A stretch of 50,134 bases of DNA from an uncultured bacterium (GTDB taxonomy: Bacteria; Desulfobacterota; JADFVX01): positions 1 through 50,134 of the forward strand of contig CBDVDA010000002.1 of the NCBI GenBank assembly GCA_965372635.1. The letters are read 5' to 3'. Below the pieces are notes generated by a model that saw only the letters and a list, made by a program, of their open reading frames with translations, ran no database searches and had not been told where the DNA came from. Positions 11,384-39,318 of the stretch are shown piece by piece (within the stretch, counting starts at the first letter, position 1; the number at the start of each line of letters is the position of its first letter). The position numbers were made by a program, and so were the translations under genes.

Positions 11384-12187
11384 AATATTTAAACACCTCC
11401 ATTAATTTTTTAATCAATTAAAATGGTTTGACCTGCTTGAAAGCCAAAACAGATTACCAAAGTAGTCTTCTCCCTCCCTTCCCAAGCAAAATACAAAAAT
11501 AATTACACCTTCATGCTTAATGTAAGTTTCCATTAAATCAGGTCTCTATATTATGTACTCCTATAAGGCGACAACTTTGCGGCAAAACCTTAGCACAAAC
11601 GTTACATTTACAGGGCGAATGTACACACTAAACACTAAGCCCTAACTACATGTCAAGGACAAACCACACAAATACCCACTAATCCACCAATATACAAATT
11701 CCTACCCAATAGTTACGACACTATTCCCCTAAAAATACCCCTAAATTAGCCAAATACACCCTTGAGACACCCCAAAATACCCCAGAGTAGCACAATAATA
11801 TCACCACAAAACAGCCTGAAACAGTCAAATTAACACAAAAACCAGCATGCTGCCAATATCAGTCAACACTTAACACTTAATAAAGCCGTCTGACTATTAA
11901 AAGCGCATCAAGGTATGAAATTGCGGCAGAATACGTTTTAAATGTTGGGCAAAATCTTGTCGGGTAGGGCCAAAGCAAATAGCTGACATGTAAGAACAAT
12001 GTCCTAAAAAAAGCCATCTTACTACCCTTAGAGGCTTTTTTAGGGTGAAATGGCGGTTTAAGAAACATCTAAAGCCCTGGATTCCACATCGGGCTTGGTT
12101 TATCCAGGTCAATAGCCGGGGGAATGGCAAGCAGGGAAATGCAGGTTAACTTGTTTACTCGTTTTTATGTTCGAGATGGAAAAGGGG

Positions 12188-12240
12188 CTTTGATGTTTCG
12201 GCGTGTCCTCACGCCGGAAACAGGACCTGCGTATTTTTTA
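12188..12240. repeat. Copy B of the ~53-nt intergenic repeat; copy A is at 6950-7002
   Basis: See copy A. This copy contains the hairpin gtttcggcgtg-tcct-cacgccggaaac (12195-12221). Confidence 0.6.
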
Positions 12241-12299
12241 TTTCGGTGTGAGGACACACCGAAATATCTGAGGAGGTTAAAAAAATAAGAATAGCCTCT

Positions 12300-14981: not shown

Positions 14982-16613
14982 CTAACCTTCCGCCTGATCC
15001 GTCCCGGCAGGCAGGCAAAAGAAAAATCGGCTCCCACCGCCTTCCCTTTTTTCGAGCCCTATACTCCCTCCATGGGCCGCTACAAATTTCTTGCAAATGT
15101 AGAGACCGAGCCCCCGGCCTTCCTTTTTTTTGCCCGAAGTAAAGTAATCATCGAAGATATTGGGGATTTCGTCCTCCCCGATCCCCTTGCCGTCGTCTTC
15201 CACGAAAACGGTGTACTCCCCGTCACTCCTCTTCCCCCGAAGGGTGACAGAGCACCCTTTATCGTTATGCAAAAGGGCGTTCGTTATGAGATTCTCCAAA
15301 ACCCGGACGACCTTGCCGGCATCGATGAGAAGGGTGGCGTCATCGGACTCCCCGGAGAGAGAGAGCGCTATCCCTTCCTTCCTGGCGAGGGGGGCCATCT
15401 TCTCCACTGCCGAGCGGAGGATCCCTCCCATATCTTCCGGCTGTAGTTTCAGATCGAGTTTGCCCGACTCCAGATGCGAAATTTCCTGCAAGTCCCTCGC
15501 AAAAGCGATCAACTGTTCGCAGCTGTCGAGGGACATAGTCAACATGGTCCGCTGGGCCTCGTTGAGCTCGCCGAGCGCGTCATCGAGAAGCGCCTCCGTT
15601 CCGGAACAGATGACCGACAGAGGCGCCCTCAGATCATGGGCCGTCATGGCAAAGAACTCCGCCCTTAAGTCATGAAGCTGCTGCAGGCTCTCGTTGGCGC
15701 TCTCCAGTTCGGCCTTTTTATCTCTCAGCCGGGCGATGAATGATGCGTTTTTTATGGCATTGCTCGCCGCTGCGGCAATAATTTTCGCCAGACGGATATC
15801 CTCGTCGTCAAAGACCTCCTTTTTCCCCCTGGCTCTCAAAAAGAGGGTCCCCATCACTTCATCGTAAAAAACGAGGGGAATAACCGCCATGGACGTAATA
15901 TTGAGTTCAGCAAAGGTCTTCGCCATCCCTTTCAATCGCTGGTCGTTATGGACGTCCCTGATAATCACATCTTTTTTTGAATCGAAGGCATGCATGATCT
16001 CCGGGTATTTGTCGAGATCGATTTCTATTTCTTCTTCATCCCCTATGTCGCTACAGGCGATTATCCTTCCTCTTTTTTTCTTTTCATCCACCACGATGAC
16101 CGTGACCCGCCCGTCCACCTGTTTGGATGCCTTCTCAGCCAAGACCTGGAGTACCCTCTTTACGTCGAGATCGGAGGTTATCTCGATCATGATATCCATG
16201 ATGGCCGACTGGTCTCTCTTAATCCTGTCGACCCTGTCGTAGAGAGCCTTCGATCTTAAATGTGCACCTACCCTGGCGAGGATGATTTTCGGTGACGCCG
16301 ATTTTGTGATAAAATCGTCGGCCCCCACGGCAAGCGCCTTCAAGGCATGTTCGTCCGCATCGAGGGCGGTGAGCATCAATATGGGGACGGCGCTCAACTC
16401 TTTTCGTTCCCTGATCCGCCTGCAGGTTTCGATCCCGTCGATACCGGGCATCATCACGTCGAGAAGAATGAGATCGGGGGCCCTATCGTCTAAAATCTTT
16501 AACGCCTCTTCTCCCGTCGCCGCATGACTGATTTTATGGAACTGAACCTCCAGGAGATCGGAGATCAATTCTCTTTGCATATTGTCGTCATCGACAAGGA
16601 GGATGTTTGCCAT
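14982..16613 (-). CDS. REC-GAF-HisKA-HATPase sensor histidine kinase
   Basis: 543 aa. REC is ILLVDDD...LILLDVMMPGIDG. A central GAF-like region follows. The H-box is FFAMTAHDLRAPL. The ATPase motifs are NALLHN, DDGKGI and GRGLGL. Confidence 0.85.
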   Translation of the reverse strand: MANILLVDDDNMQRELISDLLEVQFHKISHAATGEEALKILDDRAPDLILLDVMMPGIDGIETCRRIRERKELSAVPILMLTALDADEHALKALAVGADDFITKSASPKIILARVGAHLRSKALYDRVDRIKRDQSAIMDIMIEITSDLDVKRVLQVLAEKASKQVDGRVTVIVVDEKKKRGRIIACSDIGDEEEIEIDLDKYPEIMHAFDSKKDVIIRDVHNDQRLKGMAKTFAELNITSMAVIPLVFYDEVMGTLFLRARGKKEVFDDEDIRLAKIIAAAASNAIKNASFIARLRDKKAELESANESLQQLHDLRAEFFAMTAHDLRAPLSVICSGTEALLDDALGELNEAQRTMLTMSLDSCEQLIAFARDLQEISHLESGKLDLKLQPEDMGGILRSAVEKMAPLARKEGIALSLSGESDDATLLIDAGKVVRVLENLITNALLHNDKGCSVTLRGKRSDGEYTVFVEDDGKGIGEDEIPNIFDDYFTSGKKKEGRGLGLYICKKFVAAHGGSIGLEKREGGGSRFFFCLPAGTDQAEG

Positions 16614-16791
16614 AAGGGATTAAATTCGTTTCTTTTTTTATGCTGGAAAAAGCGCCGGGCCTTCACGGGAAACCGGCCGATTTATTTGGAACAACCGCCT
16701 GAGAAAAGAGTCCGGTTGTTTGTAATCACTGATAAAAAACTCTATGAATGCAGGTATTCCTGTTAATCCCGCTGAGACGTCGAAGCTCCGG

Positions 16792-18366
16792 CTAGGCGGA
16801 AGGGAGAGAGACGATAAAGGTGGTCCCTTCCTCCTCCTTGCTCAAAACATTGATCCTCCCCCTGTGGATCTCGGCAACCTTCTTCACCAGCGCCAGACCG
16901 AGACCCACCCCCTCGTAGCCCCGCGTAAGCGAGCTGTCGAGTTGCAAAAAGGGCTCGAAAATCTTGTTTATCTTCTCTTCGCTTATCCCGATACCGGAAT
17001 CACGTATGGTAAATTCGATGGCGCCCTCTTCGAGTTGATTCACGGTAAAAGTCACATCGCCCCCTTCATGGGTAAATTTGACGGCGTTTTTGAGGATATG
17101 GTTCAGCATGAGGATGATCTTCTTCTTTGCGCCGTTGATGGAAGGGAGGTTCTCCGGGCAGTCGACCTTCAGGCTTAGTCCCTTTTCTTTTGCCTCCATG
17201 GCGGATTGCTCCCCGAGTTCTTTCACGATATCGGCAACGTCGAAGAGTTCGAATTTCTCTGTCGGATAATCTTCCTGAAGAGAAACCATCTCAAGGAGAG
17301 AATCGATGATGAAGGCGAGCCGCTTGCAGCACTGGTGCATATCGGTCATGATCTCCAACTGGGTGGGGGAGAGGTTCCCCAGGTCTTTATTAAGAAAGAG
17401 TTCGAGGTAGCCCGCCACCGGCGTGAGCGGCGTCCGGAGTTCATGGGAAACGTTCTGCATAAATTCGTTCTTCAGCCGGTCGATACTTTTCAGATCCTCG
17501 CCGGCGTCGGAGAGTTCCTGTGATTTTTCTTCCAGTTCCGTCGTCAGTTCCTCCAGATTGGTGTAGGAGTTCTGCAATTCCTCGTTGGAGACCTTCAACT
17601 CCTCGTAGTTGCATTTCAACTCTTCATCCCATCTCCCCAGGTTTTCCATCATTTCGTTGAACCGCCGGGCGAGCAGCGCCAGGTCGTGATCGGCAGGCAC
17701 TTCCGTCCTCGAGTTGAAATCCCCCTCCTCCGAGACCTTCTCTACAAAATTAATCAGCTTTATGAAGGGGCGAAGCACGGTCGTCCGGATATGGAGATAG
17801 ACCACGAGGGCGAAGAAAAAGACAAGGACGACGGTAACGGCAACCACCCGCTGGGAGGTTCGGACTTTGGCGGCATTCAGAGCGTTTATCTCATCCAGCC
17901 TCTTTTCAGACATCTCCTCGGCGGCAGCCAATACACCGGCAATTTTCTTACCGATGCGCGCCGCCTCATGTACAGCCTTCTCTTTTTCCGACTCCCGGGA
18001 GATGGTCACCGTTTGGCTCACACTTGCCTTATAGTCTCTGAAATCCTCTGCAAGCGCCCCTATCATTTCAACCAGGTTGCGGTCAGTCTCCCTTTTGGCA
18101 AGAGAGTCGAGATCTTCCTCCACCTCCTCCACGGAGGCCACCAGTGCATCGAGGTCCGGGCTGTAACCCGCTTCATAACGGTAAAGCTCCATCAGAGAAG
18201 TCTCTAAATTCATCACCAGGTGATGATAGGAACTGTGCCTCTCCTGCTCCAAAGCCATAATACGGAAATTTTCTATATAGGCCGACGAGTTCCAGAGCAG
18301 GGTGCCGCTTGTCGCAACAACGAAAAGCAGGGAAACAACGAGATATTTCTTTACTTTGCTTCTCAT
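16792..18366 (-). CDS. Membrane sensor histidine kinase (2 TM, periplasmic helical domain, HAMP, HisKA, HATPase)
   Basis: 524 aa. TM helices at YLVVSLLFVVATSG and VVAVTVVLVFFFALVVYLHI. HAMP region LRPFIKLINFVEKV...RRFNEMMENL. H-box FMQNVSHELRTPL. G2 motif GVGLGLALV. Confidence 0.85.
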   Translation of the reverse strand: MRSKVKKYLVVSLLFVVATSGTLLWNSSAYIENFRIMALEQERHSSYHHLVMNLETSLMELYRYEAGYSPDLDALVASVEEVEEDLDSLAKRETDRNLVEMIGALAEDFRDYKASVSQTVTISRESEKEKAVHEAARIGKKIAGVLAAAEEMSEKRLDEINALNAAKVRTSQRVVAVTVVLVFFFALVVYLHIRTTVLRPFIKLINFVEKVSEEGDFNSRTEVPADHDLALLARRFNEMMENLGRWDEELKCNYEELKVSNEELQNSYTNLEELTTELEEKSQELSDAGEDLKSIDRLKNEFMQNVSHELRTPLTPVAGYLELFLNKDLGNLSPTQLEIMTDMHQCCKRLAFIIDSLLEMVSLQEDYPTEKFELFDVADIVKELGEQSAMEAKEKGLSLKVDCPENLPSINGAKKKIILMLNHILKNAVKFTHEGGDVTFTVNQLEEGAIEFTIRDSGIGISEEKINKIFEPFLQLDSSLTRGYEGVGLGLALVKKVAEIHRGRINVLSKEEEGTTFIVSLPSA

Positions 18367-19304
18367 AAACCGTTCTTTTCTACATATCCGTTAAAGAGTT
18401 GAGCGTTGTCGATTTTTGCCTTTTCAAGCATCTTACGAACGACGTCATAATCGGAGTCTGCCGTTTCTATAAACCGCTCCGCTTCGAAGGTTTGAAACAC
18501 CCCTTTCCCCTCAGGGCTCTCGTGGAGACCGAGGAGAGCGGCCTTCAGCCGCTTTTTCATCTCTCCATCCACCGATTTCGAAAGGACGAGTCCGTTCGAC
18601 GGAACGGGGAGAGACTCGGCCAGGACCGTCATGGCGTCGCCGAACTTTGGATCATTGCGGACAAGCCTATCAAAGACGAGGTCCTTTCCGCAACCGATAT
18701 CGGCCTTCCCGGAATATACCGCCTTCATGGAGGCGTCATGGCTGCCGTAATAAACGGTTTCGCCGAAAAACCCCTGCAAATCCGGGACGGCCCTGGCCGC
18801 CAGATAGGCGCGCGGGAAAATATCGCCCGCCGTTGTAAAGGGATGCACCATGGCCATTTTTTTCCCTTTCCATGTAGAGAAATCGGAGGTAATACCGCTC
18901 CCCCGGCGGGTAAAAATATAGCCCTTGTAGTTGGAACGCCCGTCTTTCCATTTCGGTCTCGCCACCACCTCCCCGCCGGCGAAGGCGTTGATAAGGACAT
19001 AATCGAGACTCCCCACAAAGGCCATCTCGAGGATCCCCTCCTTAAAGGCATGGGCAACCTTACCGTAACTCGCCATGATCTTCATCTCGATGGTCGCCCC
19101 CGCCTGCGCCGACAGATAATCGACGAGCGGCCGGTAGCGCTTTCTCTGTTTGAAGATATTGATCTCCGGCACGAGCCCGAGCCTCAAGACCTTTTCGGGA
19201 GACGCCTTTTTCACCTCGCCGCCCGGTTTCGCTCCCTCGTCCTTGCAAGCGGAGAAAAAGATGAGAAGGAGAAGAAGAAAGGGTGTGAAACACCTTCTAT
19301 TCAT
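18363..19304 (-). CDS. PhnD-like (phosphonate-binding family) periplasmic substrate-binding lipoprotein
   Basis: 313 aa. Lipobox LLIFFSAC. LRLGLVPEINIF...YGKVAHAFKEGILEMAF...HPFTTAGDIFPRAYL is typical of the PhnD/Phosphonate-bd fold. Its stop overlaps the HK start by 4 nt. Confidence 0.75.
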   Translation of the reverse strand: MNRRCFTPFLLLLLIFFSACKDEGAKPGGEVKKASPEKVLRLGLVPEINIFKQRKRYRPLVDYLSAQAGATIEMKIMASYGKVAHAFKEGILEMAFVGSLDYVLINAFAGGEVVARPKWKDGRSNYKGYIFTRRGSGITSDFSTWKGKKMAMVHPFTTAGDIFPRAYLAARAVPDLQGFFGETVYYGSHDASMKAVYSGKADIGCGKDLVFDRLVRNDPKFGDAMTVLAESLPVPSNGLVLSKSVDGEMKKRLKAALLGLHESPEGKGVFQTFEAERFIETADSDYDVVRKMLEKAKIDNAQLFNGYVEKNGL

Positions 19305-20688
19305 TGTAGGCCTCCTTAAATTGTCCCGGCTCTTTTGCGAGGCGCAGGAAAACGTCCACCACGACAGGATCGAGTTGAAAACCGGCTTCTCTTTCGATCT
19401 CTTCGAGGACAGGCCTCATCTTCATCTTCTTCCTGTAGGAACGGGTCGATCTCATGGCGTCGTAGGTATCGACAACGGCAATGATCCTCGATTCCATTGG
19501 GATGCCGTCTTCTTTAAGTCCGTCGGGATAACCCTTCCCGTCATACCGCTCATGGTGATGCCGTATGGGAGGAAGAAGGGCCGCCAGGTGCTTGACGGGC
19601 TTTATAATATTTTCACCCACAACGGGATGGTTCTTCATAACCGTATACTCATCGTCCGTCAATCTCCCCGGTTTCCTCAAAATACTGTCATCGATCCCTA
19701 TTTTCCCGATGTCGTGCAGCCGCGATGCATGCCTCAGACGGTCAATAAAATCCTTTTTCATGCCCATTGCAGAAGCGACGTCCACGGCAAACCGGGTCAC
19801 CCGTTCCGAATGTCCCCGCGTATATTTGTCTCTCGCCTCAAGCGCAAAGATCATCGATTCCACAATCCCCACCACGTAATCGACCTGTTCCTTGCTCTTT
19901 ATCAGTTCTCTTTCAAACCTCTTTTTCAGGCTTTCGATATCCCTTCTCCGCCGCTTATCAAGGAGAGTCCCGAGGGCATCTTGAACCACCTTTGCATCTA
20001 CAGGCTTGGTAATGCAGTCGAAGGCTCCTTCGCGAATGGCGTCCTTGATGAAGACGATGTCCTTGGATTCGGAGAGCAGCATGATATCCGTATGGGGGCT
20101 CCCGACGGCAAGTTTTCTTAGAAGATCGAAGATATTGATCTCCACGCCCGAAATATCGGCCAGGAAAACATCGGTATCGTGCGTCGAGATGTGCGAATAG
20201 GCCCGCCTGAGCGGGAGAGTCGCCACAGTCTCAAAACTCTCCGTCACCTCTTTCAGGAAAACCATGTCTTTCCTGTTTTCGGACGCCAGGAGAATCTTCG
20301 GCTGATACTCCTCCTTTGAGACCGTTTTCCTGGCATAAAGGGAACTCTTTACGGCACGGACGAGGTCGTCGCGGCTGAAAGGTTTTACAAGATAATCGCT
20401 CGCTCCTTTTTTCAGGAGTTCTGCCGCATGAACGTCTGTCCCGTAACTCGCCATAATAATAATTTCTATGCTCTGATCGGTCGCCTTGATCTCCGAGATG
20501 ATCGATTTCTTTTCCATCCACTCGATGAGATGGTCGAGCAAAACGACGTCCGGGTTTTCCTTTTCGAGAAGCTTCGGTATTTCGTCGGAGGCTGCCGCCG
20601 TCACTACATTATACCCCTCCAGATCGAGCATGAGGGAAACCATCTTCAGTATTTGCCTGTCCTTGTCGGCAACGAGAATCTTTTCCAA
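19297..20688 (-). CDS. Response regulator with two receiver-like domains and an HD-GYP phosphodiesterase domain (RpfG-type)
   Basis: 463 aa. REC1 is ILVADKD...VVLLDHL...LVKPF. REC-like 2 is ILLASEN...VFLADISG...ITKPV. The HD-GYP motifs are HSERV, LHDIGKIGI and HHERYDGKGYPDGL. Confidence 0.85.
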   Translation of the reverse strand: MEKILVADKDRQILKMVSLMLDLEGYNVVTAAASDEIPKLLEKENPDVVLLDHLIEWMEKKSIISEIKATDQSIEIIIMASYGTDVHAAELLKKGASDYLVKPFSRDDLVRAVKSSLYARKTVSKEEYQPKILLASENRKDMVFLKEVTESFETVATLPLRRAYSHISTHDTDVFLADISGVEINIFDLLRKLAVGSPHTDIMLLSESKDIVFIKDAIREGAFDCITKPVDAKVVQDALGTLLDKRRRRDIESLKKRFERELIKSKEQVDYVVGIVESMIFALEARDKYTRGHSERVTRFAVDVASAMGMKKDFIDRLRHASRLHDIGKIGIDDSILRKPGRLTDDEYTVMKNHPVVGENIIKPVKHLAALLPPIRHHHERYDGKGYPDGLKEDGIPMESRIIAVVDTYDAMRSTRSYRKKMKMRPVLEEIEREAGFQLDPVVVDVFLRLAKEPGQFKEAYNE

Positions 20689-20689
20689 G

Positions 20690-21070
20690 CTAGTCTTCCT
20701 GCAGGTATTTCCTCAAAACGTCGAGCAGGTTCTTCGCATTAAAAGGCTTCTTGATATATTCCGTGCATCCCGCCTCAAACCCCGCCTCCTCGTCTTTGTC
20801 CATGGCGAAGGCGGTGAGCGCAACAATGGGCGTCTCCTTGAAAGCCGCCATTTCCCTGAGCTTTCTCGTCACTTCAAGACCGTCCATCTTGGGGATCTGG
20901 ATATCCATGAGGATAAGATGGGGATTGTTCTCTTCCGCCACCTTCAGCGCTTCGGCCCCATCGATCGCCTCCAGCAGTTCGCAATCGACCGCCTCGAGGA
21001 TAAACCGGAACAGCTTCATATTGGAGGGGTTGTCCTCCACGATCAGAATTTTCTTTCTTCCTTCTTTCAT
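20690..21070 (-). CDS. Single-domain response regulator
   Basis: 126 aa. ILIVEDNPSN, LILMDIQIPKMDGLE and YIKKPF. Its stop lies 1 nt from the next gene's start. Confidence 0.9.
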   Translation of the reverse strand: MKEGRKKILIVEDNPSNMKLFRFILEAVDCELLEAIDGAEALKVAEENNPHLILMDIQIPKMDGLEVTRKLREMAAFKETPIVALTAFAMDKDEEAGFEAGCTEYIKKPFNAKNLLDVLRKYLQED

Positions 21071-21089
21071 CTTATCTCTCTTTCACTCA

Positions 21090-23222
21090 TTAATTTCCGT
21101 TTGCCATGAACCTGATGTTTTTTATCGCCGTATCTCCAATCTTCATAATCCGGGCCACCTGCCCCGTAAAAAGATCCTCATTCTCCTTCGGCTCTCCCTC
21201 TGTCAGGACGAGCAGAGGAATCTCTGACATGAGTTGTTCGCTTCCGAGGCGTTTTATCAACCTTTTGCCGTCATAACCGGGATGTAGAAAATTGAGGGTC
21301 ACATTGTCGGGCTGCAAGAGTCCGGTGGCCCTGAGGAGGTCTTTCTCATGATTAAAGGAGATCACCTCAAAGCCCCCGTCCTTCAACTGGCGGCAGAGTT
21401 CGGTCGCTTCCTTGTGGCCGTTCTCGAAGACGAGAACGAGCTTTGACGGCATGGTAGAGTCGAGCCTGCCCGCCCGTATTTCCTCTTCCAGTTTGGAAAA
21501 AAAGGTGTTGTCCTTTACACGCTCCTTCCCTTCCAGCAGTCCGGGCTCCGACTCCGTAAGAAAGGTAAAGAAAAAGGTGCTGCCCTCTCCCGGCAGGGAA
21601 TCTACCCATATAGTCCCTCCCAGCACCTCCACCAGTTTTTTGCAGATAACGAGGCCCAGTCCCGTCCCTTCGTAATTCCTGGCGTGAGAACTGTCGGCCT
21701 GAACAAAGGGTTTGAAAAGTCTTGCAATATCCTTTTCTTCAATGCCGATTCCCTGGTCTTTTATGGCAATCTCTACCATTGCTCCCCGTTTGTTCAGGCT
21801 CACTTCAACGGTAGAATTTTCAGGGCTGAATTTAAGCCCGTTGCTGATAAGGTTTAAAAGCACCTGGCTCAATTTTCCGCCATCCGAAACGGCGCCACCC
21901 ACTCCGTCGCCAGCGGTAACGTCGATCTTCTGGCTCTTCTTGGAGGCCATGGGCGTCATCGTCTTTACCGCCGCTTCAACCTCCTCTTTCACGTCGAATT
22001 CCCTCACTTCGATCTCCAGGTAACCGGCCTCTATCTTTGAAAGGTCGAGAATGTCGTTAACGATCTGCAAAAGATGGAGTCCGCTGCCGAGGATATCCTG
22101 AACGCACTCCTTTTGCCTGTCCAGAAGTTCTCCTGCAATCGAATCGAGAAGGATTTCTGAAAACCCGATAATCGAATTGAGGGGCGTCCTCAGTTCGTGA
22201 GAAACAAGGGAGATGAACTCCGACCTCAGCCTGTCGATCTCGAGAAGTTCATCGTTTTTCTGGAGCAGCATCTCCCCCTTGATTCTCAAATCGGTGGCCA
22301 TCTGTTTCAGCTTCTTTTCGGCCTCCACCTTGTCGAGACCCATTCCGAGCACGAAAGAGGCGAAGTTGGCGAACTCAATGTCCGGCTCCGAAAAGGCTTC
22401 CCCCCAGAAGAGCATAGCGCCCTTCACTTTAATGTCAGACCCGACGACAGGCGCACAGATGAGTTCCCCGGAGAAAGCCGGATCGGAGGCGCTGTAGAGA
22501 TCGGCAAACTCACTTTTGAAATCGTTTCTGCGGAAGAGAAGACTCTTCTTTGTCTTTTCCAGTTCGCCCATAAGTCCCTTCACCCCAGCCAGCGTAGAGG
22601 CATCTGAATTTATACCTTTGGCGGCGAGCTCGGTTATCTCCCGGCTTTCCGAATCATAGAGATAAACGGCACCCGCTAAAGAAGGCCTGTACTCGGAAAA
22701 TTTATTCAGGAAACCCTCGCCGAGGGCCGAAAGGGAGGACGATTGCAGAATGAGGTAGAGAAGATCATTGTGGGCCGAAAGGGTATGCCCCTGGCCTATA
22801 AGAAGTTTATTGTTTTCTTCAAGCTTGAGATTGGTTTCGTTCAGTTCTTTTTCCCTCTGGTTCAACCGTTCGAAGACAGTAGAGATCGTCTTTTCAAGCA
22901 GGCCTATCTCATCGGTCGATCCCAACGACTCGACTTCCTGCATCACGTCGTCCGGCACGGAAGCGCCTACAAGAGCGAGCATTTTTTTAAGGGGAGTTGT
23001 AATAGACCGGGAGATGACGAGGCCGAGAATTGCAAACCCGAAGATTCCCGCAGTAATAAAACCGAAGAAGAGGAGATCCAGCCTTTCGAGTAACGCGCCC
23101 TGATCGAAAGATTCCACGGAAATAGTATGACTGACGATACTGTGGGTCAACAGGCCACTGATGATGTGAGGGACAACACCTAAGAAAAGAAGGGCAATAA
23201 TCAGTTTTGTTTTGGCACTCAT
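21090..23222 (-). CDS. Membrane hybrid-type sensor histidine kinase with a C-terminal pseudo-receiver
   Basis: 710 aa. Two TM helices, a HAMP-like linker and a GAF-like region. H-box FISLVSHELRTPL. ATPase motifs NGLKFS, DQGIGI and GTGLGL. The C-terminal ~120 aa look receiver-like, but the acceptor region reads NFLHPGYDG. Confidence 0.8.
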   Translation of the reverse strand: MSAKTKLIIALLFLGVVPHIISGLLTHSIVSHTISVESFDQGALLERLDLLFFGFITAGIFGFAILGLVISRSITTPLKKMLALVGASVPDDVMQEVESLGSTDEIGLLEKTISTVFERLNQREKELNETNLKLEENNKLLIGQGHTLSAHNDLLYLILQSSSLSALGEGFLNKFSEYRPSLAGAVYLYDSESREITELAAKGINSDASTLAGVKGLMGELEKTKKSLLFRRNDFKSEFADLYSASDPAFSGELICAPVVGSDIKVKGAMLFWGEAFSEPDIEFANFASFVLGMGLDKVEAEKKLKQMATDLRIKGEMLLQKNDELLEIDRLRSEFISLVSHELRTPLNSIIGFSEILLDSIAGELLDRQKECVQDILGSGLHLLQIVNDILDLSKIEAGYLEIEVREFDVKEEVEAAVKTMTPMASKKSQKIDVTAGDGVGGAVSDGGKLSQVLLNLISNGLKFSPENSTVEVSLNKRGAMVEIAIKDQGIGIEEKDIARLFKPFVQADSSHARNYEGTGLGLVICKKLVEVLGGTIWVDSLPGEGSTFFFTFLTESEPGLLEGKERVKDNTFFSKLEEEIRAGRLDSTMPSKLVLVFENGHKEATELCRQLKDGGFEVISFNHEKDLLRATGLLQPDNVTLNFLHPGYDGKRLIKRLGSEQLMSEIPLLVLTEGEPKENEDLFTGQVARIMKIGDTAIKNIRFMANGN

Positions 23223-23317: not shown

Positions 23318-23346
23318 ATTGTATCACAGGCAACATCGTTTTTAAA
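23318..23346 (-). promoter_or_regulatory. Candidate extended -10 sigma70-type promoter for the HK-RR-HD-GYP operon
   Basis: The minus strand reads TTTAAA-N17-TACAAT, with TGA immediately upstream of the -10 element. It lies about 95 nt upstream of the ATG at 23222. This is a pattern match only. Confidence 0.25.
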
Positions 23347-23370
23347 AACAGAGGCCTCCCACTGCCTCCC
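23340..23370 (-). terminator. Candidate intrinsic terminator after the parA-partner gene
   Basis: The minus strand reads GGAGGC-AGTGGGAG-GCCTCT followed by GTTTTT, about 30 nt after the stop at 23401. The stem is short (6 bp, including a G-U pair). Confidence 0.35.
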
Positions 23371-23400
23371 CCTTGGCAGTAAAAGAGAACCCCGGCAGAG

Positions 23401-23883
23401 CTATATCTCGATCCACTCAAAAAAATCAGGAAGGGAGACAAATTTGATGAACTGCTCCTCTGCGATAACGTTCACACCCTTCACCCGTCCCTCTATCGAC
23501 TCAAGGGCGTGCTCCTTACCGAAGGCGGAAAGGGATGACTCGTCCCAGGTCACTTCAACGCACGCGTCCGCCTCTCCCAAGGCGGCAAAAACCCTGTAGC
23601 CGCTCCCACCCGCCGCCGTCTCAAGCACCAGGAATTCCGCAGGGCCAGACAAAGAAAAAACGACCTGAAAACGACCCTCTCCAAGAAGTTCTCCCGCCTT
23701 TTTCATCACCTCTTGCAGCAGGGAACTTTTCTCCTCCCGGCCTCCCTTTTCTTCAACCATTTCTTTCTTTCGCCGCTCAAATACAGGCGGCGGCTCGAGC
23801 GTCTCAGAGAGATGAAACCGGATCGGTTTCGTCAGGTCCTCGATGAGTGAGGTCTTTCCTAAACCGCCCTTTACCTTTGCCAT
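23401..23883 (-). CDS. Hypothetical 160-aa protein with a ParB/Spo0J-like N-terminal peptide; putative ParA partner
   Basis: The start overlaps the parA-like stop by 13 nt. The N-terminus MAKVKGGLGKTSLIEDL resembles ParB N-terminal peptides (Spo0J begins MAKGLGKGINALF from memory). A charged linker and a ~100-aa C-terminal domain of unknown fold follow. Confidence 0.55.
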   Translation of the reverse strand: MAKVKGGLGKTSLIEDLTKPIRFHLSETLEPPPVFERRKKEMVEEKGGREEKSSLLQEVMKKAGELLGEGRFQVVFSLSGPAEFLVLETAAGGSGYRVFAALGEADACVEVTWDESSLSAFGKEHALESIEGRVKGVNVIAEEQFIKFVSLPDFFEWIEI

Positions 23884-24629
23884 TGAATCACCTCTTTCGC
23901 CATCCTGTAGTAATCCTCCGAGCCGTGGCTGGTCCGGTCGTGCTCGAAGATCGTTTTCTGATAACTCGGGGCCTCTGCCAAGCGGATATTGGGACGGATA
24001 CAGACATTAAAGACCCGACCCGGAAAAGAATCCTTCAGTTTTTCGAGCACCTGCAAGGATAAAGTATTTCTCGGATCATACCTGACCACGAGAAAACCCA
24101 TGATCTCCAGTTCGGAGTTAAAGCGCTTCACCTCTTCGATCTTCGCTAATATCTGCCTTAAGCCCACGAGGGAATAAAAACCGACATCGACGGGCACGAT
24201 GATCCACCGGCTCGCCATAAGCGCGTTAGAGACGAGCAGGCCGATCTGCGGTGGGCAGTCAATAATAACGTAGTCGTAATAGTCCCGCACCTGGTCAAGC
24301 TTGATTTTGAGCCGCTCTTCATGCCTGTCTTCCTCCAGGAGGATTACTTCCGCTCTGTGAAGGGAGAGCGTGGAGGGCGCAATATGGATGTTCCCTTTTT
24401 TAAAGATGTTATATTTAAATTCCACCTCATCGTCGAGGAGGACGTCAGCCATGGAAATAACGATATCCTCGATGTTTATCCCGAAGGTGAGCGATGAACT
24501 CCCCTGGGGGTCCATATCGATGAGAAGTACCTTTTTCCCGTTCAGGGCGAGGGCGGCTGAAAGGTTGACGGCCGTCGTCGTCTTTCCGCAGCCCCCTTTC
24601 TGGTTCGCTATTGAAATAACTTCCGCCAT
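23871..24629 (-). CDS. ParA/Soj/MinD-family ATPase encoded within a chemotaxis cluster (PpfA/ParC-like by context)
   Basis: 252 aa. Deviant Walker A NQKGGCGKTTTAVNLS, Walker A' LLIDMDPQGS and Walker B YVIIDCPP. Confidence 0.88.
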   Translation of the reverse strand: MAEVISIANQKGGCGKTTTAVNLSAALALNGKKVLLIDMDPQGSSSLTFGINIEDIVISMADVLLDDEVEFKYNIFKKGNIHIAPSTLSLHRAEVILLEEDRHEERLKIKLDQVRDYYDYVIIDCPPQIGLLVSNALMASRWIIVPVDVGFYSLVGLRQILAKIEEVKRFNSELEIMGFLVVRYDPRNTLSLQVLEKLKDSFPGRVFNVCIRPNIRLAEAPSYQKTIFEHDRTSHGSEDYYRMAKEVIQWQR

Positions 24630-24640: not shown

Positions 24641-25372
24641 CTAGAGGCTGAACTCCTTTATCTTTTCATTGCCAAAATAAACGAAAACGGCGCCACCTGC
24701 CTCCCTCACGGAGACCTCTCTCTCCTTATACTTCCTCCCGATATAATAATCCTTCCCCCGTATATTTATCTGCCCTGATTCGGAAACCTTGCAGGCAACA
24801 CCGCTCTCTTCCTGCCTGACAGACGACCTCTCATCAGTTCTCGGTTCTTCGACGGTCTCGGCACCCTCCCCTTCCCGGTCGAGCGTCTCCTTCATCATGA
24901 TTTTCTCGGTGCTGGAGAAAATCTCTTCCAGGTTGAGAATGATGGTCAGTTTTTTATTCACTTCGGCAACGCCTGCGAGATAGTCTGCTTTCAGCCCCGC
25001 CACCAGCTTCGGCGGCGCATCGATGTCGCTTTCGGCGAGTTTCAGCACCTCATAGACCTTGTCCACCTGCACACCGACGGAAAAGTCCTTCATTTCCAGC
25101 ACGATGATTCTCGTCTCTTCGTCTCCCGGACTCCGTTCCATGTCAAAACGCCGCCTCATCTCCACGATGGGGATGATGTCTCCCCGGAGGCTAATAATCC
25201 CTTCGATAAATTCCGGCGCCTTCGGAAGCGGAACGATCTCGTAAGCGGCGATGATCTCCCGCACCTGCTCGATGGGGATGCCGAACCGCTCACGGTCCAG
25301 CCCGAAGGTTATAAATTTACACATCTTTCTCAAAGTGACGTCTCGTTTGCTATCTTCCTGTTCCATCGTCAT
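24641..25372 (-). CDS. cheW: CheW-domain coupling protein with a ~90-aa C-terminal extension
   Basis: 243 aa. The CheW core is FITFGLDRERFGIPIEQVREI...PEFIEGIISLRGDIIPIVEMRRRF...VGVQVDKVYEVL. An acidic linker and a small beta-rich tail, INIRGKDYYIGRKYKEREVSVREAGGAVFVYFGNEKI, follow. Confidence 0.85.
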   Translation of the reverse strand: MTMEQEDSKRDVTLRKMCKFITFGLDRERFGIPIEQVREIIAAYEIVPLPKAPEFIEGIISLRGDIIPIVEMRRRFDMERSPGDEETRIIVLEMKDFSVGVQVDKVYEVLKLAESDIDAPPKLVAGLKADYLAGVAEVNKKLTIILNLEEIFSSTEKIMMKETLDREGEGAETVEEPRTDERSSVRQEESGVACKVSESGQINIRGKDYYIGRKYKEREVSVREAGGAVFVYFGNEKIKEFSL

Positions 25373-25378: not shown

Positions 25379-27310
25379 CTATACCTTAAAGCGTTCCGTA
25401 ATGCGCCGGAGGTCGTCCCCCAGACGCGCAAGTTCCTGGGCCGTATTGGCGATCTCTTCGGCGCTGGCGGCGGACTCCTTCACTACCGACGAGATACTCT
25501 CCATGGACGCCGCCACCTCGTCCGATACGGCCGCCTGCTGCCGCGAGGCCTCGGTTACCATTTCGATAGAATTGACCGTCTCCTTCACCTGCCGGATGAT
25601 CTCTCCAAGCGCCTCGCCCGTATCGTTCGACAGGGTAGTCCCCTCTTCCACCTCACGGGTCACATCGGACATGGAATCGACGGCGAAAGAGGTCTCCGAC
25701 TGTATTTCTCCCACGATCTCCGTAATCTGAAGCGTCGAATCGGCCGATTTCTCGGCAAGCTTCCTGATCTCCTCGGCCACCACCTCGAAGCCCCGGCCAT
25801 GCTCGCCTGCGCGGGACGCCTCGATTGCTGCGTTTAGCGCCAGCAAGTTCGTCTGTGCGGCAATCTCCTTGATTACCTCCACTATCTGTCCGATATGTTT
25901 CGACCGCTCGCCGAGACGCTGGATCTTGGCGGCAGAATCGGACACGGACTGCTCGATGCGGGCCATGCCCGACATGGTCCGGGAAATGATTTCTCCTCCC
26001 TGGGACGCCGTTTCCGACGTCTTTTTTGAAACCTTGAGAGACCGCTCGGCATTGGTGAAGGTGCCCTGAACGGAGGTGGCCATCTCTTCCATGGCGGAGG
26101 CGACTTCTCCCGTCTGCCTGTACTGGTTATCCGTCCCGGCGGCCAACTGCTCCGTCGTGCTCGATATCTCTTCCGAAGCCGAAGCGATGCTGTTTGAGGA
26201 TTCCATGATGTTGGAGATGATCTCCCTCAAGTTCTTCGCCATATCGGCGAGAGAGGTGGCCATGTCCCCGATCTCGTCTTTTGAAGTTATCTGCAAATTC
26301 GCCGTCAGGTCGCCGTCGCCAAACTGTTTGGCAAACTCGGCCACCTTGACAAGCGGCGAGACGATGAGTCGGCTTAAAATTATACTCCCCCCCACGGCGG
26401 CGATGACGGCAAGGAGGAGAAATACGAGTTGCATCGTCTTTAACCGGCCCACACCCTTGGTCGCCTCTTTTTCATACATGCCGACGGCGGCATTCATGTT
26501 TTTCAGGAGTTTCAGGTTGTTATTTTTGAGATAATTGATGGCGCTGTTGATAACGGCAGACCCTTCCACGACGGACTCGACGCTCTCCTTAAAAGCGCCC
26601 CAAAGGGTCTCCACTTCCCCCAGCTTCGCGCGAATGGCCTTCTCTTTAATGGCTTCGACTCCGAGCTTCCGGTTACCTCGGAGAAGGGCCTTGTGCGTAC
26701 GGTCAAAGGAGTTTAGAGTTGCGGAAAGGACTTTCTTGTCCAACTTCCCCTGGCTTAGAAGGAGCGCCTCTTTCGTCATTTTCTGGGAAAGCATCCTCTG
26801 CCGTCCCGCCAGGTTGATCACCTTGGCCGGGAGTTTTGCCCTCTCCATAAGGAGGACCGCTTCGTTCAATTTCTTTAAAAGATCGACATTGTTGCTGTTA
26901 ATATAGGCGAGGGAAACATTGCGATCATAGGCATTTGCGGCCACCACATCGAGGTTTTTCTTGAATCCCTTCCAGATGCCGGAGATGGCATTCAACTGCG
27001 TAAGGATATGGGGGGCCTTCGTCGGCGGCAGGCCCAGTCCTGAGTCGCCGGAGATCAGCCCCTTAAGGGTCTTGTCGAAGAGTGCACTGGTTTTCTTCAG
27101 GCTCTCCACCTTTTCAATATCCTGGCTGACGCCGAGCGCCTCTTTGGTCATTTTCTGGGAAAGCATCCGTTGCTTCCCGGCCAGATTGATTACGACGCCG
27201 TCGCTCTTTTGCGCATTGAGCGTCAAAAATGTAGCCATAATGGCAAGCCCCATGAGCAAAAGGAGCCCGAGAAATACGGCAAATAGTTTTAGATTGATCC
27301 CCACTCTCAT
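25379..27310 (-). CDS. Methyl-accepting chemotaxis protein with two PilJ/NarX-P-box-type periplasmic modules
   Basis: 643 aa. [19 protein letters not shown] and [19 protein letters not shown] occur in the periplasmic region. HAMP region [10 protein letters not shown]. The signalling-domain core is [35 protein letters not shown]. Confidence 0.88.
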
Positions 27311-27324: not shown

Positions 27325-29322
27325 CTAAGTTTTAAATCGTTCCGTTAAACGTTGCAGGTTGTCGCCAAGCCGGGCAAGTTCCTGCGCTGTATTTGAAATC
27401 TCTTCAGAGGCGGCAGCTGTCTCCTTCGTAATGGTGGATATACTCTCCACCGATGCCGCCACTTCATCGGAAACGGAGGCCTGCTGTTTGGATGCCTCTG
27501 CCACCATTTCAATAGAATCGACGGTCTCCTTTACCTGCCGGATGATCTCCTGGAGCGCCTCGCCCGTCTGGTTGGAGAGCTTCGTCCCTTCCGAAACCTC
27601 GGCAGTCGCCTCTTTCATGGACGTAACGGTCAAGGCCGTATCACCCTGTATCTCTCCAACGATCTCCGTAATCTGCAGGGTGGATTCCGCCGATTTTTCG
27701 GCAAGCTTCCTGATCTCCTCGGCTACCACCTCGAAGCCGCGCCCATGCTCCCCGGCGCGCGAAGCCTCGATTGCGGCATTGAGAGCCAGGAGGTTCGTCT
27801 GGGCGGCAATCTCCTTGATCACCTCCACGATCTTTCCGATCTGGTTCGAGCGGTCTCCAAGGGCCTGCACCTTCGCACTCGACTGGGAAACGACGTCTTC
27901 GATGCGAGCCATGCCGCTCATGGTGTTGCTCACGATGTCGCCCCCCTTCGATGCCGTCTCCGACGTTTTCTTGGAAACATCGAGGGATTTCTGGGAATTG
28001 ATGAAGGTGGCCTGTACCGAATTGGCCATCTCTTCCATGGCGGAGGCCACTTCCGTCGACTGTCTCGCCTGGTTGTCGGCGCCGGCGGCCAACTCCTCCG
28101 TCGAACTCGATATCTCTTCCGAAGCACTGGCGATACTGGTGGACGCCTCCTTAATATCTTTAATCATCTCCTGGAGACCGTCCATGAATTTATTGAAGGC
28201 CGTCGAGGACTCGGCAACTTCGTCCTTTCCTATTACATCCAGCCTGAGCGTCAGGTCGCCGCCGCCGGAAGCGAGGTCCTCCATCGATTTCCTCTGTAAA
28301 ACAATTGGACCCGTAATGCCCCGGTTGATGGAAAAGGAAACGACAACGGCAAAAAGAAAGGAAAGGACTGTCACTCCCAGGTACTGTATCAGGTCGCGCC
28401 GGGCGCTATCCTTAAAATTAGCCGCCTTCGATTTCAACTCCTGCGACAGCTTGTCCTCCACCTCTTTAAGCAGGTTGATCTTCCCCGTAATCGTCTTAAA
28501 CCAGTAGGAGGCATCGACCTCAAAACCTCCGGAGGCGGCCTTCCCGAAGGCAATTCCCCGCATCCGGTCCACTTCATCCACATACTCCCCCTGCACCTTG
28601 GTCTTGTAATAGGTCTTCTCAGAAGGAGAAGCAAAGCCCATAAAAACCCTCATGTAGGTACGCTGCGCCTCGACGAGAAAAGCGAACTTGTTATACATGC
28701 CGGGGCCAAACCTGTCCGCCGCAAAGGTGTTGCTGAGCACTGCCCGTTCGATACCGGCCCGTTCCTTTCCTTGCAAGAAGTTGACATAGGCGGCAATCGT
28801 AGTGGAGAGTTCCGCATTGCTGCTTATCTTTCCGATGAAGGCGATCGTCTCCAGAAAGGAGGCGTTCATCCTCGTATAATAACCGATCGCCTCAGCCACA
28901 GAAAGCTTGAGGGCGGTGATTTCGCCCCTCATCTTTTCGACCTTACTCAGATCGGCCAGGCTCCTGTCGAGGACTCCCTTGAATTCACTCCCGTAACGGT
29001 TGTCGTCGAAACCTCGCAGGAAACCGCTGAGGTCGGCCCGCTTTTTGTCCGTCGATTTCCTCTGCGCCGGCAATTCTTGGGCAAACTTCTTCCCTTTTCC
29101 ACCGATGTAGCCGGCGGTACGTCCTCTTTCCTTCTGCGTTTCATGAACGAGGGCGCTTATCTTGACGGCCAGGTCGGAGAGCCGCTCCAGGTCCTTCATG
29201 TCTTCAGACACCGTGTATTTGTCCAGCACGCTGTCGGCGGAAAAATAAAGCAGCCCGGCAAGCGGAAAAAACATCATTAAAATGAGCTTGTTCCTGATTC
29301 TAAGATTGTTTAAAAACGTCAT
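27325..29322 (-). CDS. Methyl-accepting chemotaxis protein with an NIT (nitrate/nitrite-sensing type) periplasmic domain
   Basis: 665 aa. The NIT-like signature is [23 protein letters not shown]...QRKSTD. HAMP region GGGDLTLRL. The signalling-domain core is identical to that of the neighbouring MCP. Confidence 0.85.
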
Positions 29323-29416: not shown

Positions 29417-31084
29417 TCATATCCCCTGCCAGAGGGTAGGCACATCCAAAACGAGGACGATCTCCCCCGTCCCGAGGATACTGGCGCCCGAGATGCCGTC
29501 GAGCGGCGTCTCCAGCCTTTCTATAAAAGGCCCTAGCGGTTTGATTACCGTTTCCACCTTCCCCAGGAATTCATCGATGACGATGCCCGCCTTCATCCCC
29601 ATCTGGTTGAGGACCACCGTATTCATCCTCCCGGTCAGCTGCCTTTCCACCTCGCCCTGTTCGAGGTTAAAGAGCGTCGAGAGACGGTGGATAGGGACCG
29701 CCTTGTGCCGGACCATATAAACCATCTGGCCTTTCATATATTCCACCTTGTCTTCATAAATCATGATCGTCTCATCCACGTAGGGCATGGGAATACCGAA
29801 AACGAGGTTCCCCTCCCGGACGAGGAATAGCTGCACAATGGCGAGAGTCAGCGGGACCCTGACGGTGACTGTCGTCCCTTTTCTCTCTTCCCATTCAAGC
29901 CCCACATCCCCTCCCACCTTTTCGATGTTGGATTTCACCACGTCCATGCCGACCCCTCGCCCGGAGACAGAACTTATTTCGCTCGCCGTACTAAAACCGG
30001 TATGGAATATGTAGCGGGCCGCCTCATCGTCGGAGAGCTCCCGCATGTCGTCGGCGCTTACGATTCCCTTTTCCACCGCTTTTCTTCTGATTTCAGGAAT
30101 ATTCAAACCGCGTCCGTCGTCTTTGATCTGAATGAAGATGCTGTTGTGCTCGTGGTAGGCATTAAGGATGATCGTCCCCGACTGCGGTTTGCCGATTTTC
30201 ACCCGTTCACTCTTTTCCTCGATGGCATGGCCGATACAGTTCCGGACAAGGTGGACCAGCGGGTCGTAGAGGATTTCGATGACACTCTTGTCGAGTTCCG
30301 TGTCTTCCCCCTGGATATCGAGGCGCACCTCTTTCCCAAGGGAACGAGCCGTATCCCTCACGAGACGGTAAAAACGGTTAAAAAGGTCCTGCACCGGCAC
30401 CATCCTGATGCCGAGGACTTCACTTTGAAGCTGGGATGAGATATTGTTGATGTAGGAGGCGATTTCGATCAGATCGTCGTTTTTGATCTCATTGCTGATC
30501 TGGAGCAGCCTGCTCCTGCCCGCTGCAAGTTCCCCCACAAGGTTGACCATTTTGTCGAGACGAAGGGTGCTCACCCGCATGAAAGCGGTGTCTCTCACAT
30601 CCTGCGGTTCTGTTTCCTTGGTGACTTCCTTTTCCAATGTCACCTTTTTGGCCTCGCTCACTTGTCCCTGCGGCGCACCCTGGCGAGGCCCGACAAGAAG
30701 GGATTCGAGGTCGCTCACGATGCCGGTCAGGTCCCGGTCGGACTCGTTTCCGGCGATGAAATCTTCAAGCAGGAGGGAGGCGATATCAATGGCGCGAAAA
30801 AAAACGTCGTTGATCTCGGGGAAGAAGTCTAATTCATTGTCCCTCAATTTATCGAGAACGTTTTCTATTTTATGGGCAACCGTACTTAGCGTGGTAAGGC
30901 CGATAAAACCGGCATTACCCTTCAGGGTATGGGCGGATCTGAAAAGGCTGTTGATAACCTCCTCATCGCCGGGCGATTTTTCTAAACTGACGAGTTCCCG
31001 GGAAAGTTTTTCCAGTATATCCTTGTTTTCGGATATAAATTCCCCGTAGAGTTCCCTCAGATCAGGTCCTTCGTTATCGGTCAT
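29417..31084 (-). CDS. cheA: Chemotaxis histidine kinase CheA (module 2, short form)
   Basis: 555 aa. HPt FRSAHTLKGNAGFIG, N-box LVHLVRNCIGHAIE, G1 DDGRGL, G2 SGRGVGMDVV and a C-terminal CheW-like domain. Confidence 0.93.
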   Translation of the reverse strand: MTDNEGPDLRELYGEFISENKDILEKLSRELVSLEKSPGDEEVINSLFRSAHTLKGNAGFIGLTTLSTVAHKIENVLDKLRDNELDFFPEINDVFFRAIDIASLLLEDFIAGNESDRDLTGIVSDLESLLVGPRQGAPQGQVSEAKKVTLEKEVTKETEPQDVRDTAFMRVSTLRLDKMVNLVGELAAGRSRLLQISNEIKNDDLIEIASYINNISSQLQSEVLGIRMVPVQDLFNRFYRLVRDTARSLGKEVRLDIQGEDTELDKSVIEILYDPLVHLVRNCIGHAIEEKSERVKIGKPQSGTIILNAYHEHNSIFIQIKDDGRGLNIPEIRRKAVEKGIVSADDMRELSDDEAARYIFHTGFSTASEISSVSGRGVGMDVVKSNIEKVGGDVGLEWEERKGTTVTVRVPLTLAIVQLFLVREGNLVFGIPMPYVDETIMIYEDKVEYMKGQMVYMVRHKAVPIHRLSTLFNLEQGEVERQLTGRMNTVVLNQMGMKAGIVIDEFLGKVETVIKPLGPFIERLETPLDGISGASILGTGEIVLVLDVPTLWQGI

Positions 31085-31098: not shown

Positions 31099-31464
31099 CT
31101 ATCCTATAACCTTTGTAACAGCTTCCAGCAGTTCGGGCGGCTGGAAAGGTTTATTCAGGAAATTTTCCGCCCCAAGGTCCATGGCCGCCTGCCTGTCCTC
31201 CTCCCCTTTTTCGCTCGACAGCATGATAACGGGCGTCTTGGAAAACTCGGGATTGGACTTGACCTCCTTCAGTACCTCAAGGCCGTTCATCCTCGGCATC
31301 ATGATGTCGAGGATAATGAGATCGAAGGTATCGTTGGACACCTTCTCCATCCCTTCAATACCATCGTTCGCCGTGACAACATCGTACCCCTTGTACTTGA
31401 GTGTAAAGGAGATAAACTTCTGCGTTGCCGGCGAATCTTCAACACACAGGATCTTCTTTGCCAT
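31099..31464 (-). CDS. cheY: CheY-like response regulator (module 2)
   Basis: 121 aa. ILCVEDSPAT, LIILDIMMPRMNGLE and FLNKPF. Confidence 0.9.
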   Translation of the reverse strand: MAKKILCVEDSPATQKFISFTLKYKGYDVVTANDGIEGMEKVSNDTFDLIILDIMMPRMNGLEVLKEVKSNPEFSKTPVIMLSSEKGEEDRQAAMDLGAENFLNKPFQPPELLEAVTKVIG

Positions 31465-39309: not shown

Positions 39310-39318
39310 TTCACAACC

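Follow-up and report, generated by a model that had tools for sequence, protein, structure and literature searches.

ATPases of the ParA/MinD family position many bacterial cargos, and the partner that gives each of them its specificity is often unknown, leaving 'orphan' ParA proteins. In a 50,134-nucleotide (nt) stretch of DNA from an uncultured bacterium of the Desulfobacterota (contig CBDVDA010000002.1; this whole stretch is hereafter the window), a gene for a ParA-like ATPase is followed directly by a gene for a 160-amino-acid (aa) protein of an unnamed family, and both lie within a chemotaxis (che) cluster. We consider, with moderate confidence, that the two products form a ParA-type module devoted to positioning the chemosensory array that their own operon encodes. 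From the sequences and by analogy with known systems, we infer that the small protein would serve both as the activator of ParA and as its adaptor to the array.

Both genes lie on the minus strand. The ATPase gene (23871-24629; 252 aa) was assigned to the ParA/Soj-like, deviant Walker A class by its match to Pfam AAA_31 and by residue mapping. The small open reading frame (ORF; 23401-23883; 160 aa), delimited from the ORF list and from its homologs, begins with MAKVKGGLGKTSLIEDL. As a model-written first-pass annotation of the same DNA had stated, the two genes overlap by 13 nt, which both the ORF coordinates and the sequence place at 23871-23883, and they sit inside a che cluster. By Pfam, the cluster encodes on the same strand a methyl-accepting chemotaxis protein (MCP), a HEAT-repeat protein, CheR, CheY, CheA, two further MCPs, CheW, ParA, and the small ORF, in that order, with CheB further downstream of the pair. 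A Shine-Dalgarno (SD) sequence for the small ORF, AAGAGGTG, was read at 23889-23896 (minus strand), within the 3' end of parA. The 13-nt overlap and this internal SD site show that translation of the small gene is coupled to that of parA. Directly 3' of the small ORF, a consensus scan alone detected a terminator-like hairpin with a T-run (23350-23386, minus strand), followed by a promoter-like site with an extended -10 element (23318-23346, minus strand) ahead of a histidine kinase gene. This succession of a terminator-like hairpin and a promoter-like site suggests that the small gene is the last one of the che operon.

The small protein represents a genuine but very rare family, seen so far only in uncultivated bacteria and metagenomes. 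Among 5.8 billion clustered proteins searched, nine were full-length relatives of 160-166 aa with 36-73% identity, and a profile search of 1.84 billion representative proteins gave 17 matches at E<=0.001; overall, the full-length homologs span 160-172 aa. In genome collections, the family was matched in one metagenome-assembled genome only (locus L005), and tblastn against plasmids gave no match. The small ORF matched nothing in Pfam or NCBIfam at E<=1, including the CheW, ParBc, and helix-turn-helix (HTH) models, and none of 25 family members matched any Pfam model, including CheW (PF01584) at E<=1-5. Searching PDB sequences with the whole profile returned chance matches only (E>=0.06), a look-up of cluster members turned up no named protein, and the published literature that we searched contains no description of it. 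The first-pass annotation had supposed the protein to be previously uncharacterized, and the absence of a named family and of any Pfam, NCBIfam, or PDB match is in line with that view.

Alignments and an AlphaFold2 (AF2) model built on a 10-sequence alignment divide the small protein into three parts, all encoded on the minus strand. Codons 1-40 (23764-23883) specify the N-terminal peptide MAKVKGGLGKTSLIEDLTKPIRFHLSETLEPPPVFERRKK, which is basic and disordered; codons 41-53 (23725-23763) specify a variable acidic linker; and codons 54-160 (23404-23724) specify an acidic α/β domain (C-domain), delimited by AF2 and hhalign. In the model, residues 1-53 were disordered and had no secondary structure, with a predicted local distance difference test (pLDDT) score of 43-61, and residues 54-160 formed a confident α/β domain (pLDDT 77-93) with the order α-β4-α-β2-α. 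The isoelectric point is about 10 for the N-terminal 40 residues and 4.4 for the C-domain. The peptide follows the consensus MAKVKGGLGK..L..L.KP[IM]...PPP, in which the PPP motif is invariant, and the C-domain, of about 105 aa, ends with a near-invariant D-F-x-E-W-L-E. Mean pairwise identity was calculated within the window subfamily, taking ParA and CheW from the same loci. It was 79% for residues 1-38 of the small protein, 20% for the linker (39-53), and 39% for the C-domain (54-160), against 80% for ParA and 66% for CheW; the peptide is conserved on a par with ParA itself. Foldseek searches with the model gave best E-values of 0.2 in PDB and 0.03 among viral structures, with no match at E<=0.001 and TM<0.35. 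Because these searches came back empty, we rejected, within the PDB and viral libraries, the possibility that the small protein is a divergent CheW, a divergent ParB, or another known fold. Remote-homology searches and structure prediction, which the first-pass annotation had recommended for the 160-aa protein, thus gave a confident C-domain with no match to a known fold. They also agree with its description of a linker followed by a domain of about 100 aa without a CheW-like or ParB HTH pattern (Pfam, AF2 with Foldseek, and PDB sequences) and with its statement that the protein is neither ParP nor ParB, the domains of both having been found by none of these three approaches.

The family falls into four groups. 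Group i is the window group; group ii (P0016, P0018, P0021, and P0022) has a long Pro/Ala-rich linker instead of the acidic one; group iii (P0017, P0019, P0020, and P0024) consists of short proteins; and group iv (P0023, P0025, and P0027-P0030) consists of the C-domain only, with the peptide absent. The N-terminal pattern common to groups i-iii is [KR]-x-[KR]-x-G-L-G-K-x4-[LIM]-x-L-x-[KR]-[PA]-[MI]-x3-[LI]-S-x2-[LV]-x-P-P-P. These three motif-bearing subfamilies are mutually about 26-30% identical, and hhalign aligned them with the window group from end to end, peptide included, with a probability of 99.6%. Group iv aligned with the window group over residues 52-161 only (probability 97.8%).

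Genomic contexts of motif-bearing genes came from 11 distinct loci: eight of the window group (the window, L001, L002 [equal to L003 and L004], L005, L014, L015, L016, and L017), one of group ii (L006, also represented by L007 and L008), and two of group iii (L012 and L013). The first-pass annotation had allowed for the small ORF not being conserved beside parA; in all 11 loci, the motif-bearing gene stood within a che cluster and directly 3' of a parA belonging to the same clade. The order was HEAT-CheR-CheY-CheA-CheW-MCP-ParA-small-CheB in L006 and MCP-MCP-CheW-ParA-small in L012 and L013. The 13-nt overlap was preserved in all eight window-group loci, and parA and the small gene overlapped by 22 nt in L006 (ParA, 9261-10022; small gene, 10001-10672) and by 25 nt in L013. 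Most of the 11 loci had a AAGAGGTG-type SD site 5-7 nt before the ATG of the small gene; L012 and L013 had other purine-rich sites of the GGAG type.

Group iv genes were located away from parA in three of three contexts. Two of these (L009-L011 and L019) placed the gene 3' of a LuxR-type response regulator gene, among PAS kinases, and the third (L018) placed it between flgD and flgE. The stand-alone C-domain may be a general signaling- or motility-associated module. Because motif-bearing genes are always coupled to parA and their peptide-less relatives never are, we presume that the small protein faces ParA through its peptide; no argument available for this assignment is stronger than the strict coincidence of the peptide with coupling to parA.

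We then examined the ATPase. The 252-aa ORF matched AAA_31 (3e-53), as well as CbiA and MipZ, and scored under the cut-off of every specific NCBIfam equivalog. Its closest PDB sequences were those of Myxococcus xanthus ParA (8RAY; 1e-50), Thermus thermophilus Soj (3e-45), and Helicobacter pylori Soj (5e-40), so its closest solved relatives are chromosomal ParA proteins. The hallmarks of the ParA/MinD family were all found. The deviant Walker A motif NQKGGCGKT occupies residues 9-17, and its signature lysine (K11) and Walker A lysine (K16), which correspond to K31 and K36 of M. xanthus (Mx) ParA, are present in all orthologs. The aspartates of motif 2, D38 and D40, correspond to Mx D58 and D60, and the Walker B residue D124 lies within IIDCPP, aligned to IIIDCPP of Mx ParA. 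The DNA-binding residue R216 (Mx R238, equivalent to Bacillus subtilis R189) is R or K in 11 of 11 sequences. A scan for a C-terminal amphipathic or membrane-targeting helix found none; the sole hydrophobic window was an internal core segment (129-147), and the protein ends six residues past the last aligned helix position. By these features, the ATPase is assigned to the nucleoid-binding type rather than to the membrane-binding MinD type, and it is predicted to bind DNA. Its clade carries the signatures KGGCGKT and PVDVGFYSL. In L001, the truncation of parA (9244-10013) to 165 aa was rejected as a gene-calling artifact, because the frame can be read at full length from a non-ATG start (VAKIISIANHKGGCGKT). 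In L012, parA is split and appears interrupted, on a low-quality contig with ambiguous bases.

These features can be combined into a working model. ParA would dimerize with ATP and bind the nucleoid non-specifically, because its catalytic residues and DNA-binding arginine are kept. The 160-aa protein would be the cognate partner of this ParA, as judged by conservation, gene coupling, and analogy, and its peptide would bind ParA and activate the ATPase. Divergence of the ParA pocket and of the peptide from their chromosomal counterparts, described below, would shield the pair against cross-talk with the ParAB system of the cell. The remainder of the small protein, that is, the PPP motif and/or the acidic C-domain, would tie ParA to the membrane-bound receptor array. 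The outcome would be a coupling of array and ParA like that achieved by ParP or TlpT, made from an unrelated protein. The likeliest contact on the array, and the most speculative step of the model, would be an IstA-like tail on the CheW that occurs together with the pair.

This extended CheW (24641-25372, minus strand; 243 aa) consists of a CheW domain at residues 20-155 (Pfam CheW, 9e-35), an acidic linker, and a C-terminal tail at residues ~190-243 (24644-24805, minus strand), which AF2 and Foldseek depict as a small all-β domain. A CheW of 240-267 aa with a conserved tail of about 50 aa was present in 10 of 10 loci where the gene was available, and the tails share the consensus ..SGQI.IRGK.YY[IV]GKKY.G..V.v.E.......g.KIKEF. 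In a single-sequence AF2 model, in which the CheW core did not fold, the tail formed six strands (pLDDT 83-85). The top Foldseek matches were IstA of IS21 (8b4h_C; 52 columns, root-mean-square deviation [rmsd] 1.6 Å, 25% identity; and 8q4d_C, rmsd 1.2 Å), in which the barrel is domain II-β, and TnsB (7svw_B); the IstA matches had E-values of 0.01-0.05. Similarly, Pfam Mu-transpos_C_2 (PF22483) scored below threshold in nine of 10 tails (at best 18 bits against a cut-off of 27; best E 6.6e-5), and the sole match of the tail in plasmids by tblastn was an istA gene. The likeness to the IstA/MuA/TnsB barrel therefore extends over a β-barrel of about 50 residues (rmsd 1.2-1.6 Å over 51-52 residues, 25% identity); unlike those proteins, the CheW-fused barrel comes without DDE or HTH domains, and its Pfam matches are sub-threshold. 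As modeled, a chemotaxis coupling protein seems here to have co-opted a transposase domain. Its co-occurrence with the pair makes it a plausible candidate for an array-side docking module for ParA and its partner.

The barrel of IS21 docks on the IstB ATPase and stimulates it, and also touches DNA and other subunits (PMC11208146). If the CheW tail works in a comparable manner, the system might be a hitherto undescribed three-part machine for array positioning, composed of a re-specified ParA clade, an adaptor with a ParB-derived 'luggage-tag' peptide, and a CheW whose captured IS21/Mu/Tn7-like barrel serves as the array-side dock, either for the adaptor (through PPP or the C-domain) or for ParA. 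We offer this fuller version tentatively and regard it as rather doubtful. If true, it would mean that a transposase-ATPase coupling module has been domesticated for positioning a signaling complex.

The same tail also lends itself to a different division of labor, which we hold to be possible without being probable. Here, the small protein would be solely an ATPase activator of the MinE kind that tunes ParA turnover or release, and the CheW tail would itself link the array to ParA as an analog of ParP. The tail accompanies the pair in every locus for which the gene is available and matches the IstA/TnsB barrel, which in IS21 docks on and stimulates a partner ATPase (PMC11208146). ParP, moreover, combines a CheW-like domain with a module that binds ParC (PMC5706961), and the C-domain of the small protein has stand-alone relatives in non-che contexts. 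The analogy is loose, however, in that IstB and TnsC are AAA+ ATPases and not ParA-type, and a pure activator would not need a conserved, folded C-domain of 105 aa or an invariant PPP motif. We thus prefer the reading in which the small protein combines activator and adaptor.

The likeness of the peptide to ParB was compared with the system of M. xanthus, in which the ParB motif reads L11-G-R13-G-L15-x-x-L18-I19, ParB R13 contacts Y81, E82, D110, and E117 of ParA, and the ParA pocket for the peptide is formed by L150, L152, L155, and L192 (PMC12462528). In the small protein, the core of this motif is matched by L8-G9-K10 together with K3 and K5 ahead of it. The residues after the core, T-S-L13-I14-E-D-L17, are spaced unlike ParB L-G-R/K-G-L-x-x-L-I. 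We then placed the Mx ParA residues on the window ParA and on 10 orthologous loci. Residues of the ParB pocket were replaced in all orthologs (Y81 by A, T, or S; D110 by S, A, or T; L155 by S, T, or G; and E176 by V or I), and the equivalent of E117 was likewise not kept in the window ParA. The hydrophobic part of the pocket was partly retained, at I129, G130, L131, V95, and F170, and is otherwise specific to the clade. Across the orthologs, the positions of Mx L150, G151, L152, and L192 were mostly hydrophobic or glycine, with exceptions of T at 150 (L001), R at 152 (L006), and T at 192 (L012). These results indicate that the ParA clade does not have the features of a chromosomal ParA that reads the GLGRGL peptide of ParB.

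The first-pass annotation had called the peptide Spo0J-like. The resemblance is confined to its K-x-K-G-G-L-G-K core, in a peptide that is basic and disordered; the hydrophobic spacing differs, the profile search found no ParB, and pocket residues of the ParA are replaced. The peptide probably uses the same site on ParA with re-specified contacts, as read from the two sets of sequences. Re-specified contacts are expected for a second ParA system that must avoid cross-talk with the chromosomal one, and insulation from the chromosomal system has been argued for plasmid ParAs (PMC12462528). In L006, the peptide has no lysine after G-L-G (GLGAGG), and its cognate ParA has arginine in place of the hydrophobic residue that the other orthologs carry at the site equivalent to Mx L152. 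In this single case, the pair of changes could be compensatory.

Several observations weigh against a ParA-activating adaptor. The similarity to ParB extends to the short K-x-K-G-G-L-G-K core and no further, K10 is not conserved in two subfamilies (GLGAGG and GLSSAA), and a search of PDB sequences with the peptide profile recovered no ParB. (A large-database search with the peptide-only profile was uninformative, because even the family members did not score.) The ParA residues that would read ParB R13 (Y81, D110, and, in the window copy, E117) are not kept. The C-domain has no recognizable fold, and its stand-alone relatives adjoin response regulator or flagellar hook genes, not CheW.

Some of these points would also fit a peptide that binds a partner other than ParA, such as the CheW barrel, CheA, or the HEAT protein through the PPP region, with the ParB-like core being coincidental. 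In addition to the missing K10, the failure of the profile to recover ParB, and the loss of the Y81/D110 pocket, the conserved stretch of 38 residues exceeds a typical ParA-activating peptide. We nevertheless regard such a partner as improbable: the peptide occurs only in members encoded beside parA, it is as conserved as ParA, and the translational coupling of the small gene to parA is conserved. The adaptor reading, in which the peptide faces ParA, therefore remains our preferred one.

The nature of the cargo was assessed from the neighborhood. The genes presumed to form the rest of the operon with the pair all lie on the minus strand and encode a PilJ-type sensor MCP (25379-27310), a second MCP (27325-29322), CheA (29417-31084), CheY (31099-31464), CheR (31489-32355), the HEAT-repeat protein (32355-34349), and a third MCP (34403-35971); the gene order of the operon is the same in related loci. 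The 643-aa and 665-aa MCPs have two transmembrane segments each, and the 522-aa MCP has at least one. Because none of the three MCPs in the cluster lacks a transmembrane segment, the receptor array is predicted to be membrane-bound, and a cytoplasmic array, as the first-pass annotation had suggested, was rejected. On the whole, the interpretation offered by the first-pass annotation has largely held up where it was computationally tested; the likeness to ParB proved limited to a short core, and the array is membrane-bound.

The genes 3' of the pair (19297-20688, minus strand, and neighbors within 14982-23222) form a conserved set. Their products are a sensor kinase, a response regulator with a single domain, an RR-RR-HD protein with two response regulator (RR) domains and an HD_5 domain, a periplasmic binding protein of the phosphonate type, and additional kinases. 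Because an HD-domain response regulator and several kinases are conserved neighbors, this arrangement suggests that the chemosensory pathway may control an output other than the flagellar motor.

These neighbors also raise the possibility that the pair positions or regulates another cargo, for example the downstream network of histidine kinases and HD-domain response regulator, and that its che linkage reflects co-regulation only. The window-group genes 3' of the pair encode a sensor kinase, a response regulator, and the RR-HD protein, the domain-only relatives adjoin response regulators, and a terminator-like site lies right after the small ORF. The gene 3' of the pair, however, varies among the groups, being a kinase gene in the window group, cheB in L006, and an RR-HD gene in L013, whereas the upstream order of cheW or MCP, parA, and small gene, as well as membership in a che cluster, is kept in all subfamilies. 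We therefore think it unlikely that the cargo lies outside the array. Finally, the idea that the small ORF is a spurious overlapping frame, for which its lack of annotation speaks and nothing more, is refuted by its full-length homologs with invariant motifs, by a ratio of nonsynonymous to synonymous substitution (dN/dS) of 0.2-0.3 in pairs unsaturated at synonymous sites, by the conserved SD site, and by the confident AF2 domain.

Several other features of the window were recorded. Between cheB and a ThiI-like gene, the region 7307-13769 (minus strand) contains an insertion sequence transposase gene (DDE_Tnp_1/DUF772; 12330-13769), an MBOAT acyltransferase gene (8584-10062), and two ORFs without a Pfam match. 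This region looks like an insertion, because cheB directly adjoins the ThiI-like gene in L002, L014, and L015. A second CheA gene (534-2549, minus strand) adjoins a gene for a DUF4388/PatA_N response regulator (2951-4822, minus strand), an arrangement syntenic with related loci, and a response regulator with DUF4388 and TPR repeats is encoded at 47759-49861 (plus strand). An operon resembling those for succinate dehydrogenase or fumarate reductase (37496-40998, minus strand) encodes a flavoprotein, an Fe-S subunit, and a CCG-domain subunit, and a multiheme cytochrome c is encoded at 43223-44560 (plus strand); this operon and the cytochrome are consistent with a lineage that lives anaerobically and respires metals or sulfur. 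Scanning the window for Rfam families and tRNA genes gave no match.

The practical value of these findings is limited by the rarity of the family and by its restriction, so far, to uncultivated bacteria. Their interest lies elsewhere. The modular layout of the small protein, together with peptide-less paralogs that are unlinked to parA, provides a natural control. The paired changes in peptide and pocket offer a concrete case in which to study how ParA systems stay insulated from each other, and the fusion of CheW with a transposase barrel provides a testable idea about array recognition.

Known ParA systems resemble the pair to different degrees. Similar to chromosomal ParA/ParB (Soj/Spo0J), the pair comprises an ATPase with the ParA fold and catalytic set and a partner that starts with a disordered basic peptide, K-x-K-G-G-L-G-K as compared with K/R-x-x-G-L-G-R/K in ParB. 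Unlike ParB, the partner has no ParB/Srx (CTP-binding), HTH, or dimerization domain by Pfam, NCBIfam, PDB sequence, and Foldseek searches, and no parS is implied; because the ParB/Srx domain and the HTH are absent, it is not a ParB. In the McdA/McdB, PomZ/PomX, and MinD/MinE pairs, the partners McdB, PomX, and MinE show no sequence or fold relationship to the small protein (no Pfam matches), and their cargo differs. The small protein does conform to the general rule for partners of ParA/MinD ATPases, a short charged N-terminal peptide with a cargo-binding remainder (PMC10241942, PMC7993993, PMC11407121). ParA-like genes of uncharacterized function have been recorded in che clusters, one example being GSU2221 of Geobacter sulfurreducens, which lies between cheW and cheA (PMC5585712).

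The ParC/ParP systems of Vibrio and Pseudomonas likewise have a ParA-like ATPase encoded in a che cluster, an adjacent partner gene, and membrane-bound arrays. In ParP, a Pro-rich linker connects the N-terminal part, which binds ParC, to a domain that binds the array (PMC5706961). The small protein is similarly modular: its N-terminal region and C-terminal domain are joined by a flexible linker, which in one subfamily is Pro-rich. By contrast, the C-domain of ParP is a CheW-like SH3 fold (AIF), whereas that of the small protein has the order α-β4-α-β2-α and Foldseek finds no CheW; because the CheW-like domain is absent, the small protein is not a ParP. A polar anchor of the HubP/FimV type is not evident here, and the ParA is closest in PDB to chromosomal ParA/Soj, its likeness to ParC consisting in the che-cluster context and nothing else. 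The PpfA/TlpT system of Rhodobacter sphaeroides also features a ParA-like ATPase in a che operon, and the N-terminal region of TlpT contacts PpfA. As in PpfA, nucleoid binding is likely for the ParA of the window, which keeps the DNA-binding arginine. Unlike TlpT, a chemoreceptor that resides in the cytoplasm as part of the array, the partner described here is 160 aa long and has no MCP domain (PF00015); because this domain is absent, it is not of the TlpT type. To our knowledge, only two partner types are known for ParA proteins at chemoreceptor arrays, the CheW-like ParP and the receptor TlpT. On the basis of its sequence and these analogies, we infer that the small protein would constitute a third, unrelated partner family for an array-positioning ParA.

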